Positions 34,720-57,843 of a stretch of DNA of 64,000 bases are shown here, piece by piece. Source of the stretch: an archaeon GW2011_AR20 (GTDB taxonomy: Archaea > Nanobdellota > Nanobdellia > SCGC-AAA011-G17 > GW2011-AR20). The stretch is taken from the NCBI GenBank assembly GCA_000830315.1, contig CP010426.1, forward strand, positions 442,743-506,742, in the 5' to 3' direction. The notes beneath the pieces are model-generated. The model had not been told where the DNA came from. It saw only the letters and a list, made by a program, of their open reading frames with translations, and ran no database searches. A program made the position numbers and the translations under genes. Every line of letters starts with the position of its first letter. The stretch's first letter is position 1.

Positions 34720-34761
34720 GATAATCTTAGATATTATAGATTTTTAAATTTATTTATATGC

Positions 34762-34807
34762 TAAATAACAGTATAATTCCTCAAAAAACAATTTCCTGCT
34801 TTCTAAT
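34762..34807 (-). repeat. Orphan copy of the HemK-family gene 3' end (direct repeat of 35842-35887)
   Basis: 46 bp, 4 mismatches, offset exactly 1080; reads LESRKLFFEELYCYL then AYK* versus LESKKLFFEELYCYL then IFR*. Confidence 0.9.
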
Positions 34808-34818
34808 TACTTAAAATA

Positions 34819-34870
34819 GAAAAGTTTATATAGTAACAAAAGTTACCATATGGTAAATAAAATTACCATG
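34819..34870 (+). promoter_or_regulatory. BRE/TATA promoter with GTAAC-N4-GTTAC operator-like repeats
   Basis: GAAAAGTTTATATAGTAAC identical to 2593-2611; GTAAC-aaaa-GTTAC at 34833-34846; second, imperfect copy at 34853-34866. Confidence 0.6.
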
Positions 34871-35446
34871 ATATACCATCATTACCTAGAAACACTTTTT
34901 GGAAGTAAGTTAAAGGTCAAAGTAATCAGAAACTTATATAAGTTTAAAGAAAAATCATTCACCCTAAGGGAATTATCAAAATTATCCAGCATAACTCACC
35001 CGGGTTTATTAAAAGTTTTAGAGGATCTGCATGGAATGAATTTAATAAATCTTGAGAGAATAAGTAACTCCATAATCATAAAATTAAATAGAAAAAGCTT
35101 TTTATTGAATATTTTAAAAATATATGATATAGAAAATAATACTTTAAATGAATTGATTAAAACAATTAAAAAATATTATATTGATAATATCTTTAACACT
35201 GTAGCTTTATTTGGAAGCGTTGTTAGAAATGAAGAGAGATTTGATAGCGATATAGATTTATTAATAATAACTAAAAGCAAAGAATTGGCTGATAATGTTG
35301 CTGAAAAGTGTAAGGTCGAAGTAATCAAAAAATTTGGCAATGTGATTATGCCTTACATCTTGAATAAAAAAGAATTTAATGAAAGTAATATTAGGAAAGA
35401 AATTTTAAAGAATAATATATTAATTAAAGGAGAAGAATTAAAATGA
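34850..35446 (+). CDS. wHTH-nucleotidyltransferase (MNT) antitoxin; true start possibly 34868
   Basis: LFGSKLKVKV...TLRELSK HTH; LFGSVVRNEERFDSDIDL; TTACCATGATA start context matches the locus at 2644. Confidence 0.8.
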   Translation: MVNKITMIYHHYLETLFGSKLKVKVIRNLYKFKEKSFTLRELSKLSSITHPGLLKVLEDLHGMNLINLERISNSIIIKLNRKSFLLNILKIYDIENNTLNELIKTIKKYYIDNIFNTVALFGSVVRNEERFDSDIDLLIITKSKELADNVAEKCKVEVIKKFGNVIMPYILNKKEFNESNIRKEILKNNILIKGEELK

Positions 35447-35844
35447 AAGTAAAACCTGTAGATAGAAGCTTATGTTACAACTATTTAAAAAAAGCAGAGG
35501 AATTTTATCAGACTATGAAAGATGCATTAAACAATAATAGATGGAATGCGGCAGCTTCAAATGCTATACATGCTGGAATTAGCTCTACAGATGCTGTTGC
35601 TATTGCTATTAAAGGGGTAAGAAGCTCAAGTGAAAGGCATGATGATGTTGAAGGAATTTTAAGGGATTTGAATTTAAATATCAAGGAAATGAATGATAAA
35701 CTTGTTCAAATTAAGGGTTTATTGTCTATAAAAAACAGCGTTGAATATGAGGAAAAATTAGTAAATGAAAACACTGCCCTAACTGCTTCTAAAAATGCAG
35801 AGAGATTATTAAAATGGGCAAGAGAAAAATTATCTAAAAATTAA
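35443..35844 (+). CDS. HEPN-domain protein
   Basis: YLKKAEEF...WNAAASNAIHA; KNSVEYE; ATGA overlap with the MNT gene. Confidence 0.75.
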   Translation: MKVKPVDRSLCYNYLKKAEEFYQTMKDALNNNRWNAAASNAIHAGISSTDAVAIAIKGVRSSSERHDDVEGILRDLNLNIKEMNDKLVQIKGLLSIKNSVEYEEKLVNENTALTASKNAERLLKWAREKLSKN

Positions 35845-36351
35845 ATAACAGTATAATTCTTCAAAGAACAATTTCTTGCTCTCTAATAGCTGAAATTTAA
35901 AATCATTCTTCTTAATTAATTTATTTACCTTGTTTTTATTTGTTAATGAGCTGAATACAATTAATATTTTGCCGTTTTTATTTAAGTGTTCATTTGCCTG
36001 ACTAAAAAACTTTTCTAAAATTTCATAACCATGCTTTCCGCCGGTTGTTATTCTTTTGCTTTTTTCATCTTCTAGCTTTTCATCTGGTAAATAAGGAGGA
36101 TTAAATATGATTAAATCAAATTTCCCTGCAACATTTGAGAATAAGTCGGAAATTTTAGCTTTAATTCCTTTCTTTTTAACATAATTTACACTTTCTTCAT
36201 CAACATCAACTGCTAGAACATTTTTTGTAAATCTTAATGCAGCCTCTGCCTGTATTCCAGAACCGGTGCCTATATCTAAAACCTTTCCTTTAGCATATTC
36301 TTCCACATATTTTGCCAGTAATTCAGAATCTTCGCTTCGTTCGTAAATCAT
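35830..36351 (-). CDS. HemK2/PrmC-family methyltransferase
   Basis: EDSELL, LDIGTGSG, FNPPY, GGKHG. Confidence 0.85.
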   Translation of the reverse strand: MIYERSEDSELLAKYVEEYAKGKVLDIGTGSGIQAEAALRFTKNVLAVDVDEESVNYVKKKGIKAKISDLFSNVAGKFDLIIFNPPYLPDEKLEDEKSKRITTGGKHGYEILEKFFSQANEHLNKNGKILIVFSSLTNKNKVNKLIKKNDFKFQLLESKKLFFEELYCYLIFR

Positions 36352-36637
36352 ATTCTAGTTTTTGTCTTCTATGTATCTGCATATCCATAAAATTTTCTGA
36401 ATTTAATACATAATCTATGTCAATCACATACACCCCATTTTTTGCTTTAGGGTTTGTAGTTAAATGTTCTATTTTCTCGCTTAGAATATCCGATGCATAT
36501 ATCGATTTATCGAAATATTCTCTAAATTTTCTGTAATTCTCATCATTGCCGACAATTATAACTTTGCTGAACCTATCATCCAGACATTCTTTGATATCTC
36601 TAGACAGCTCCAATAAAATAGTGTCAAGATTCTCCAT
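36323..36637 (-). CDS. Hypothetical protein
   Basis: 104-aa ORF in the operon direction; no motif recognised. Confidence 0.55.
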   Translation of the reverse strand: MENLDTILLELSRDIKECLDDRFSKVIIVGNDENYRKFREYFDKSIYASDILSEKIEHLTTNPKAKNGVYVIDIDYVLNSENFMDMQIHRRQKLEYDLRTKRRF

Positions 36638-56833: not shown

Positions 56834-56834
56834 G

Positions 56835-56989
56835 CGCCGAGGGTGGGATTTGAACCCACAAGTCCTTGCGGACACTGGATCTTTGTGTGGTACTACAGGT
56901 CTCTGAAGTACGACTGTACTTAGCAATCTTACGCCATAATTTCAACTCAGGAATCATGTCAGCGCAGTACCAGATTGTGCCACCTCGGC
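56835..56989 (-). tRNA. tRNA-Ser(GCU) with two introns: 29/30 (56929-56959, 31 nt) and 37/38 (56881-56920, 40 nt)
   Basis: Exons 56960-56989, 56921-56928 and 56835-56880 give an 84-nt cloverleaf GCCGAGG..CTGGA TT-GCT-AA TCCAG, long variable arm, GTGGG-TTCAAAT-CCCAC, CCTCGGC-G73; both introns form BHB-like folds. Confidence 0.92.
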
Positions 56990-57628
56990 ATGATGCATAC
57001 TGCCGGTTTTTTGAAAAATTTTATACTTATTTAAATGTTTCGAGTTTTTTGGTCTGATTTCTTTAATCCATTTATGTAGCATGAATTTTCCCGCAACACA
57101 TAATTTTGCACTATTATTGCAATTCCAAATATAATTACGAAAATTGAGCTCATTTAGTAGGATAGATAGATCTTTAATTAATTTTTTGGAAGCTAAATCA
57201 AATTCAATTTTTGGATAATAGTTATTTTTGGTATGATTTTTATCAAATCTAAGGCACCCATCGGTATCGAATAATCCTCTTAAAAACGCTAATTTAATTG
57301 AATGAGATGACTTTTTCACATATTCAGGTATTTTTACGGTATAAGTTTTTGTCCCCGGTCTAAATCCATAATGAAGGAAGAATGTTGTATCCTCTTTTTT
57401 AGAAATTTGAACCCCATAACATCCGTTCTTTCCCCCGCTTCTAAATTTTGCATGAAATTTTTTGTGAAATATGGTTTGAAGTAATTGGATGACGTTGTGG
57501 TCGTAATATTCCTTTTCATTTAATGCGCCTCTTAATTCCCAAACTAAGCTTCGATTAGTTTTGTATAATGTTCCATCTCCTATATGCATGCCAATCAATT
57601 CAGCAATTTTTGAATTTATTTTTAACAT
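56954..57628 (-). CDS. Free-standing two-motif LAGLIDADG homing endonuclease; last 12 codons run through tRNA-Ser exon 1 into intron 1
   Basis: IAELIGMHIGDG and AFLRGLFDTDG; C-terminus HAEVAQSGTALT* is the tRNA 5' exon read as codons. Confidence 0.88.
   Translation of the reverse strand: MLKINSKIAELIGMHIGDGTLYKTNRSLVWELRGALNEKEYYDHNVIQLLQTIFHKKFHAKFRSGGKNGCYGVQISKKEDTTFFLHYGFRPGTKTYTVKIPEYVKKSSHSIKLAFLRGLFDTDGCLRFDKNHTKNNYYPKIEFDLASKKLIKDLSILLNELNFRNYIWNCNNSAKLCVAGKFMLHKWIKEIRPKNSKHLNKYKIFQKTGSMHHAEVAQSGTALT
57029..57041 (-). promoter_or_regulatory. BRE/TATA-like element inside the LAGLIDADG CDS, upstream of the functional tRNA-Ser
   Basis: GAAACATTTAAAT, identical to 57831-57843 upstream of the orphan 5' fragment. 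Confidence 0.55.
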
Positions 57629-57771
57629 TTTAAACTACCCTTACTTAATTGGTTGGAACTAGATAAATGATTTTATTTATATAACTCGCGGTTGTATGTC
57701 TGGCGGGAAATTTTAATTTACTAGTTAAAAATATTCTTTAAAATGATTCAAAATGAGATTCAAAAACGATC

Positions 57772-57805
57772 AATCCAGCGCAGTACCAGGTTGTGCCACC
57801 TCGGC
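57772..57805 (-). pseudogene. Orphan 5' fragment of tRNA-Ser (positions 1-34) lacking the 29/30 intron
   Basis: GCCGAGGTGGCACAACCTGGTACTGCGCTG|GATTG matches spliced exon 1 + exon 2 with one mismatch, then diverges. Confidence 0.9.
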
Positions 57806-57830
57806 ATAGAAATTATTGTAATTATAATTA

Positions 57831-57843
57831 ATTTAAATGTTTC
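57831..57843 (-). promoter_or_regulatory. BRE/TATA promoter upstream of the orphan tRNA-Ser fragment
   Basis: GAAACATTTAAAT ending 25 nt before G1. Confidence 0.6.

Follow-up and report, generated by a model that had tools for sequence, protein, structure and literature searches.

Three cassettes in the window

The window analysed here is a stretch of 64,000 nucleotides (bases 442743-506742) from the single-contig, 829,411-bp genome of the archaeon GW2011_AR20 (31.7% G+C), a very compact DPANN genome of the Nanoarchaeota/Woesearchaeota type in which the junctions between genes are of near-zero length. At three of these junctions a small cargo of genes lies between two copies of an end of a host gene, one of which is functional and the other an orphan. 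Cassettes of this kind, at these sites and elsewhere in the genome, are minimal selfish units, consisting of a promoter and one to three addiction-type genes, that are inserted at near-zero-length junctions. Either side of the insert carries a stretch of target sequence (28-152 nt over all cases), with the flanking genes intact. A preliminary description of the window had placed repeats at three sites, with MNT-HEPN, PIN and LAGLIDADG genes as cargo, and both the positions of the repeats and the identities of the cargo (MNT-HEPN, PIN_2 and LAGLIDADG_3 by Pfam) are borne out. Gene calls are based on open reading frames (ORFs), the relatives that were compared are fragmentary metagenome bins, and the labels denote genomes (G, where G000 is the source genome) and individual loci (L).

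The first cassette lies between two genes that Pfam assigns to an MTS/HemK-like and a TrmY-like methyltransferase. A repeat of 77 nt occurs at 34746-34822 and 35826-35902 (79% identical, offset 1080), both copies being read on the minus strand. The copy at 35826-35902 is the functional 3' end of the hemK-like gene (35830-36351), and the copy at 34746-34822 is an orphan end, situated 27 nt upstream of trmY, that retains the last ~18 codons, ending in LESRKLFFEELYCYLAYK, and the stop. The cargo between them (34823-35844, plus strand) comprises a TATA-like promoter, AAAGTTTATATA, followed by an MNT gene (34850-35446) and a HEPN gene (35443-35844), which overlap by 4 nt and match PF18765/PF01909 (Polbeta/NTP_transf_2) and PF05168, respectively. 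The stop of the HEPN gene falls within the functional copy of the repeat.

The second cassette is found at the 3' end of the gene for a 4019-aa surface protein (39282-51341, minus strand). Here the repeat is 114 nt long (38275-38388 and 39269-39382, minus strand, 85% identical, offset 994) and spans the tail of the giant gene plus the overlapping start of the next gene, such that each copy is half functional and half orphan. The copy at 39269-39382 thus carries the functional tail and stop of the surface protein along with an orphan ATGTACAAA start, and that at 38275-38388 carries an orphan giant-gene tail (a transmembrane anchor plus KKRRLRNLNK and the stop) along with the real ATGTACAAA start of a 142-aa gene (37858-38286). 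In the cargo (38389-39268, plus strand) a promoter precedes a pair of small RHH-like ORFs (38463-38594 and 38610-38852), neither of which has a Pfam match, and a PIN_2 gene (38853-39266) whose stop lies 2 nt from the functional copy. A 330-aa ORF antisense to this cassette (38288-39280, minus strand) runs from the orphan ATGTACAAA in frame to the orphan membrane-anchor tail and is also open (309-326 aa) in G001 and G002. It was considered as a gene and set aside, since it stays open in 7% of trials when codons are reshuffled synonymously, and it is probably a shadow ORF.

In domain content and two-gene operon layout the first cargo corresponds to the type VII HepT/MntA (HEPN-MNT) systems and the second to the VapBC-type (RHH/PIN) modules, both being assigned by gene content. 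These families describe the function of the genes; the insertion of the cassettes is not covered by them.

At the third site a free-standing LAGLIDADG gene (56954-57628, minus strand) is flanked by a functional tRNA-Ser(GCU) gene (56835-56993, minus strand), with introns at 29/30 and 38/39, and by an orphan fragment (57769-57850, minus strand) that corresponds to positions 1-34 of the tRNA without intron 1. The repeat is 39 nt long (56953-56991 and 57769-57807, 90% identical, offset 816), and the orphan has a native-type promoter, TATAGAAACATTTAAAT, ahead of it at canonical spacing.

Recurrence in the genome and states of the junctions in relatives

The cassettes had been described as recurrent, free of integrases and associated with toxin-antitoxin and homing-endonuclease genes, and all three statements hold across the genome. 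When the left flank was scored against the right flank at all 28 toxin-antitoxin, Fic or LAGLIDADG loci, an alignment score of at least 50 was reached at 9 of the 28, against 1 of 831 ordinary genes or gene pairs scored in the same way (odds ratio ~390, Fisher p = 1e-13), a count that leaves out the retroelement case discussed below; 10 of the 28 lie above the 99th percentile of the controls. Repeats of this kind are therefore more frequent around selfish modules than elsewhere, and the refuting condition named in the preliminary description does not apply. No integrase, transposase or other mobility gene was found by Pfam in any of the cargo genes. In a self-BLAST of the genome, short repeats spaced 0.3-6 kb apart are direct in about 49 cases and inverted in 3; internal repeats of large genes, N-termini of tandem paralogues and three retroelement-type GC-rich repeats were then taken off this list.

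By Pfam, the cargo genome-wide is MNT-HEPN (four times), Fic (twice), PIN, a DUF2683+ParE-like pair, an Asp-protease+DUF5678 pair and LAGLIDADG. Beyond the three cassettes of the window, MNT-HEPN occurs at the 3' end of the RNase Z gene (repeat of 56 nt, 96%), ahead of cysS, where the start of cysS is duplicated, and, together with a second insert, behind a VanZ-like gene, where there are three repeat copies (89-99%). Two further cassettes carry Fic genes, another the DUF2683+ParE-like pair, and the longest repeat, 152 nt at 88-94%, flanks the Asp-protease+DUF5678 pair. The repeat lengths are 77, 114, 39, 56, ~110, 42-97, 107-121, ~96-120 and 152 nt, with only 28 nt for Fic2, and the inserts measure 0.7-1.2 kb. 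The genome of 0.83 Mb holds about nine such cases. Divergence between the copies is 4-21%, and their order is fixed, with the cargo in between. The cassettes are also flush, in that the promoter directly follows one repeat and the stop codon lies within or beside the other, leaving no spare DNA. Gene ends, which had been proposed as the targets, are not the only ones: the repeats of Fic1 and RelE1, and most of that in the Asp-protease case, are intergenic.

A rule of polarity was considered as a clue to the mechanism, whereby the 3' end of the cargo abuts the gene-contiguous copy. It is followed in 8/8 scorable cases in G000 but broken at L059, and is therefore given little weight; the polarity of the cargo may stem from antisense terminators that convergent genes share. 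Likewise rejected as cassettes are the repeats at genome positions 825825-825894, 826767-826836 and 829057-829164, which are GC-rich and whose differences look, by eye and uncounted, to be centred on adenine/thymine. These are most likely the template and variable repeats of a diversity-generating retroelement; they sit at the 3' ends of AT-rich ORFs, with a DUF2683+ParE-like cassette between two of them.

In relatives the same junctions are seen in empty, occupied (with a decaying orphan), swapped and stacked states. For instance, hemK and trmY abut in G019 (gap of -4 nt) and G001 (gap of 23 nt), and the junction is occupied by MNT-HEPN in G000, by RelE+RHH in G005 and by DUF2683+ParE-like in G002. 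The RNase Z/TFB junction is empty in G003, G005 and G019, and in G000, G001 and G004 it holds the same cassette (78-81% nucleotide identity) and an orphan RNase Z end, which is frameshifted in G001 and G004. The stop of the giant gene is 1 nt from the start of the 142-aa gene in G005, and the same PIN cassette is present in G001 and G002, the latter having in addition an orphan tail and a second MNT-HEPN cassette. The Asp-protease site is empty in G002. At the cysS junction all four genomes examined carry an orphan cysS start right after the stop of the upstream gene, with lengths of ~30, 45 and 60 nt, and the MNT-HEPN cassette of G000 has only ~30% protein identity to those of the other genomes. 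No empty sites were found among the relatives for cysS, VanZ, Fic1, Fic2 and RelE1; gene order differs around Fic2, VanZ and RelE1.

The hemK junction can be followed furthest, as homologues of its MNT protein with 92, 85, 75 and 63% identity in public metagenomes are all convergent on the 3' end of hemK. Locus L050 is identical to G000 across the orphan, and L051 has most of the orphan deleted. Tandem arrays are seen at L053, where the two cassettes are 75% identical to each other, the HEPN gene of the older one is frameshifted and the hemK-end copies are 95% identical over 93 nt, at L054, where the upstream region of trmY is duplicated along with two cassettes, and at the VanZ site in G000. 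Yet the orphans are still 79-96% identical to the functional copy, which is too well kept for neutral relics of one ancient event and implies repeated events at the same homology. More distant homologues are found elsewhere: an MNT homologue with 61% identity sits after SMC without a repeat, and an MNT-HEPN homologue with 47% identity (L059) follows a DUF4443 gene with its own 101-nt, 94% duplication of the gene end, its cargo being co-directional and so of opposite polarity.

The LAGLIDADG gene and tRNA-Ser(GCU)

The third site shares the geometry of the cassettes, as had been claimed, but differs from them in its history, in that it is no newly arrived 1-kb cassette. Standard finders in this lineage miss tRNA genes that have multiple short introns, and neither ARAGORN with default settings nor Rfam, in gathering and E-value modes, called a tRNA in the 64-kb window; at the gathering thresholds Rfam gave no RNA gene of any kind. 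With introns allowed, ARAGORN reports a tRNA-Phe with an 887-nt intron, a false call in which the 5' half of the orphan is fused with the 3' half of the true gene; this reading is rejected because the downstream copy is complete and, with the introns at 29/30 and 38/39 taken out, folds as a canonical tRNA-Ser(GCU). In the orphan fragment the 29/30 junction is uninterrupted, and the fragment ends in the anticodon (~34), between the two intron sites.

The LAGLIDADG protein keeps both acidic motifs (IGDG within HIGDGT, and FDTDG within LFDTDGC) and matches PF14528 at 1e-12. The last 11 codons of its gene (AEVAQSGTALT, then the stop) are exon 1 of the tRNA. The stop itself falls in intron 1 and still within the functional copy of the repeat. 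Over 180 homologues are found at E <1e-8, with identities of 49-99% among the 120 matches listed. Homologues with 75, 69 and 57% identity stand immediately upstream of a two-intron tRNA-Ser(GCU) in three contexts, and in two of these, as in G000, the ORF reads through exon 1 (AEVAQ[S/P]GTA[L/Q]T) and stops in intron 1. In G025, a relative at the level of the order, the tRNA carries homologous introns at both positions, and the LAGLIDADG gene found upstream is divergent. Thus the LAGLIDADG gene and the intron-bearing tRNA-Ser(GCU) are an old, conserved and overlapping linked unit, and the only local novelty at this site is the intron-less orphan fragment. As the orphan is without intron 1, which is homologous in G025, the two tRNA-Ser copies come from different alleles.

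Among close relatives the intron content of tRNA-Ser(GCU) ranges from zero to two. Intron 1 and the LAGLIDADG gene occur together in G000, L064, L065, L067 and G025, and both are missing from G030 and G031. In G005 the tRNA-Ser(GCU) gene is without introns, a LAGLIDADG gene is absent, and the promoter motif, TATAGAAACATTTAAA, is that found ahead of the orphan in G000. G027 has both introns, with no LAGLIDADG gene found within the retrieved locus. Within the same genus, the acceptor and anticodon stems of the intron-less tRNA-Ser(GCU) at L044 (G005:C82, about 1420-1510) are very different.

From these arrangements the orphan fragment reads as a scar of homing and repair. The driver is probably the LAGLIDADG endonuclease itself, which would cleave tRNA-Ser(GCU) alleles without introns around the anticodon; repair would follow from the intron-protected, endonuclease-linked allele, and a truncated, intron-less 5' fragment would remain. 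The nearest precedent is collaborative homing by F-CphI, whose free-standing gene adjoins the intron of psbA in cyanophage S-PM2 (Zeng, Bonocora & Shub 2009, as presented in PMC6083498). At the third site, likewise, the gene of a free-standing endonuclease adjoins a gene with introns, relatives without the endonuclease (G005, G030 and G031) have intron-less alleles, and the orphan ends between the two intron positions. It differs in that the enzyme is of the LAGLIDADG type, the gene is a tRNA gene, the introns are of the archaeal tRNA type rather than group I, and the endonuclease ORF overlaps exon 1 of the tRNA; the cleavage specificity is a prediction from sequence. A full-text literature search returned no description of LAGLIDADG genes overlapping or beside intron-split tRNA genes in DPANN.

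Similar associations are found nearby and elsewhere. Next to the orphan tRNA fragment is a structured, GC-richer stretch (window 57896-58080), and a second LAGLIDADG ORF (58010-58681, LAGLIDADG_3 by Pfam) is convergent on this stretch and overlaps its 3' end; at L065 the corresponding position relative to the LAGLIDADG/tRNA-Ser pair is held by an intron-containing tRNA-Met. A third free-standing LAGLIDADG gene (genome 295052-295909, L069) stops 38 nt ahead of a tRNA gene with an intron in the same orientation (Rfam, 42 bits). Of the four free-standing LAGLIDADG genes in the genome, three thus have an intron-bearing tRNA gene as a neighbour.

Possible routes of entry and exit

The question then is how such units enter and leave a junction. 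The sites are polymorphic among relatives, and host recombination, which had been named as one route, is the most economical one. It is also our leading candidate, with middling confidence: the cassettes would come and go by host homologous recombination, with the cargo carrying homology to its target. DNA with the cargo and a stretch of the target gene's end or start would arrive from a related cell. Its integration would take one homologous crossover of the Campbell type, or else a homology-anchored one that relies on RadA-type recombination of the host. The copy contiguous with the gene would remain functional and the displaced copy would turn into an orphan and decay. Recombination between the two copies could then excise the cassette, giving an empty site, or could build tandem arrays or swap one cassette for another. 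This homology-crossover route is favoured because of the intron difference between the tRNA-Ser copies, an excess of synonymous changes, the long-lived pairing of the cassette with hemK, whose orphans look too recent for one ancient event, and the arrays and swaps.

The synonymous excess relates to the earlier claim that the copies differ like alleles. Pooled over the repeats, which are short and so give substitution statistics of low power, the codon differences between copies are 18 synonymous to 23 non-synonymous, where 18% synonymous is expected under neutrality (p = 1e-4). To that extent the claim stands. It is weakened in that the excess is marginal (p = 0.054) when set against a model with one constrained and one free copy, and in that the two copies within one genome are usually each other's closest relatives (hemK; RNase Z matrix).

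Both of these points weigh against import by crossover, as do several others. At L053 the difference between the target copies (95% identical) and the cassettes (75%) fits in-situ duplication or gene conversion as well as it fits import from a very close donor. The L059 cassette, with its own duplication at the DUF4443 gene, means that cassettes change targets. Where it has been measured, homologous recombination works poorly on tracts of 30-150 nt that are 80-95% identical. Finally, no circles or donors were observed in the assembled genomes.

Much of the same evidence bears on a second explanation, which we consider rather unlikely but still a serious rival, namely a true long target duplication in situ. 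Joining of the cargo into a staggered break, or replicative template switching that returns upstream of where it departed, would generate both copies from the recipient's own sequence, and the cargo would bring no homology along. Such a process would account for the clustering of copies by genome, the contrast at L053, the variation in length between 28 and 152 nt, the duplications that are intergenic, and the only marginal rejection of the constrained/free model. It would also suit a single cassette family that occurs at several targets, each of them locally duplicated (hemK, RNase Z, cysS and VanZ in G000, and DUF4443 at L059). What it leaves unexplained is an orphan tRNA-Ser without the ancient intron carried by the functional copy, the ratio of 9 synonymous to 4 non-synonymous codon differences in the giant-gene tails, and a cassette that keeps its place at the hemK end across protein identities of 99% to 63%, with orphans that look younger than the association itself. 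Gene conversion between the copies could blur the distinction between in-situ duplication and crossover.

A third explanation, and an improbable one, is that the cassettes are att-flanked, non-autonomous elements similar to cis-mobilisable elements (CIMEs), moved in trans by one of five tyrosine recombinases, with the repeats as attL and attR. Phage 21 and e14 at icd, tRNA-targeting integrative elements and CIMEs all depend upon an integrase that inserts into the 3' end of a gene and supplies a replacement end, and silent differences in the replaced gene end are the classic mark of such insertion. The cassettes resemble these elements in their order of orphan end, cargo and functional end with mostly silent changes, and in having a tRNA gene as one target; moreover, five Phage_integrase-family genes are present in the 829-kb genome (at 162542, 248108, 253507, 555569 and 777420). 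However, each of these is at least 5 kb from any cassette, and no recombinase gene lies within or adjoins one. The targets number at least nine and are unrelated, the ten repeats have no k-mers in common beyond chance, identity decays gradually at the repeat edges with no sharp identical core, and the same junction (cysS) is duplicated to different extents in different genomes. The cassettes are furthermore ~1 kb in size as opposed to 10-50 kb. Because of the missing shared k-mer, the gradual edges, the variable lengths and the lack of an adjacent recombinase, a dedicated site-specific recombinase is disfavoured, and the suggestion of a single recombinase acting in trans finds no shared crossover motif to support it. 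Nor did the k-mer comparison yield an integron-type conserved site at the cassette ends, no search having been aimed at attC-like folded structures. For two of the five Phage_integrase genes (410 and 443 aa), ARAGORN calls a tRNA gene at a distance of no more than about 1-2 kb.

It is more doubtful still that the cassettes are what is left of larger plasmids or viruses that had integrated, their integrase and other genes having been deleted while the addictive toxin-antitoxin genes survived. Such genes would be expected to outlast their vehicles, and larger repeat-flanked segments of 3.1-3.3 kb do exist in the genome (630200/633339 and 768065/771324), but the cassettes are flush, have the same minimal size in several species, and at no site examined in relatives is there a larger intermediate version. 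An assembly artefact, in which two strains were merged at gene ends, had been raised for this metagenome-derived genome and is extremely improbable, given that the genome is a single contig, that the diverged copies keep a fixed order around functional cargo, and that the same layouts recur in independent assemblies (L050 at hemK, G001 and G004 at RNase Z, G002 at the giant gene).

Whichever route applies, the cassettes have a named precedent, where the preliminary description had recognised no named class of element. Insertion with long target duplication (ILTD) was described for restriction-modification genes in bacteria (Nobusato et al. 2000, Gene 259:99) and later examined for restriction-modification units by Furuta, Abe & Kobayashi (2010, PMC2853133), in whose screen no archaeal case survived. 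Of the four features that define ILTD in the latter study, three are found here, namely repeats >30 bp, an empty site and an insert <20 kb without a mobility gene; the fourth, a restriction-modification cargo, is absent. In both, a small selfish unit of the post-segregational-killing kind, without a mobility gene, is flanked by direct repeats >30 bp (with only 28 nt for Fic2) that occur just once where a relative has the empty site, vary in length and frequently overlap the 3' end of a neighbouring gene, and in both the repeats allow amplification and loss. The differences are that the cargo here is of toxin-antitoxin, Fic or homing-endonuclease type, that the host is an archaeon with about nine cases in 0.83 Mb, that the repeat copies are often much more diverged (79-96%), and that one junction may serve different cassettes in turn or hold a tandem array. 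The cassettes are thus a variant of ILTD and not a member as originally defined. In a full-text literature search an ILTD-like pattern was not found described for toxin-antitoxin cassettes, nor for archaea.

The movement of chromosomal toxin-antitoxin and defence modules without a mobility gene is poorly explained, though these are among the most mobile genes of prokaryotes. A genome in which a third of such loci are still scarred offers a concrete system for testing spread by host recombination without a dedicated enzyme. What was seen some 25 years ago with bacterial restriction-modification genes is thereby carried over to archaea and to selfish cargo of other kinds. The overlap between LAGLIDADG genes and intron-split tRNA genes, being conserved, provides a testable handle on why archaeal tRNA genes accumulate introns. 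The two can be joined in a single reading, offered tentatively and as rather unlikely, in which DPANN archaea would have an integrase-free cassette platform, whose duplicated gene end and promoter serve as portable homology arms for addiction and defence modules that are captured, stacked, swapped and lost at fixed junctions by nothing but host recombination, and in which tRNA introns would be maintained as immunity against tRNA-targeting LAGLIDADG endonucleases. If true, the platform would be functionally like an integron without an integrase.

Two further arrangements in the genome involve cargo of the same kinds. An MNT-HEPN pair in the window (2644-3748; genome 445386-446490) lies between paralogous glycosyltransferase genes (375 and 378 aa; 64% over 143 nt) without a short flanking repeat, and could represent a whole-gene-sized duplication or merely a pair of paralogues. 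The DUF2683+ParE-like cassette occurs twice (genome 734560-735188 and 735937-736568), the copies being 1377 bp apart, 85% identical over 633 nt and separated by an unrelated 201-aa gene.

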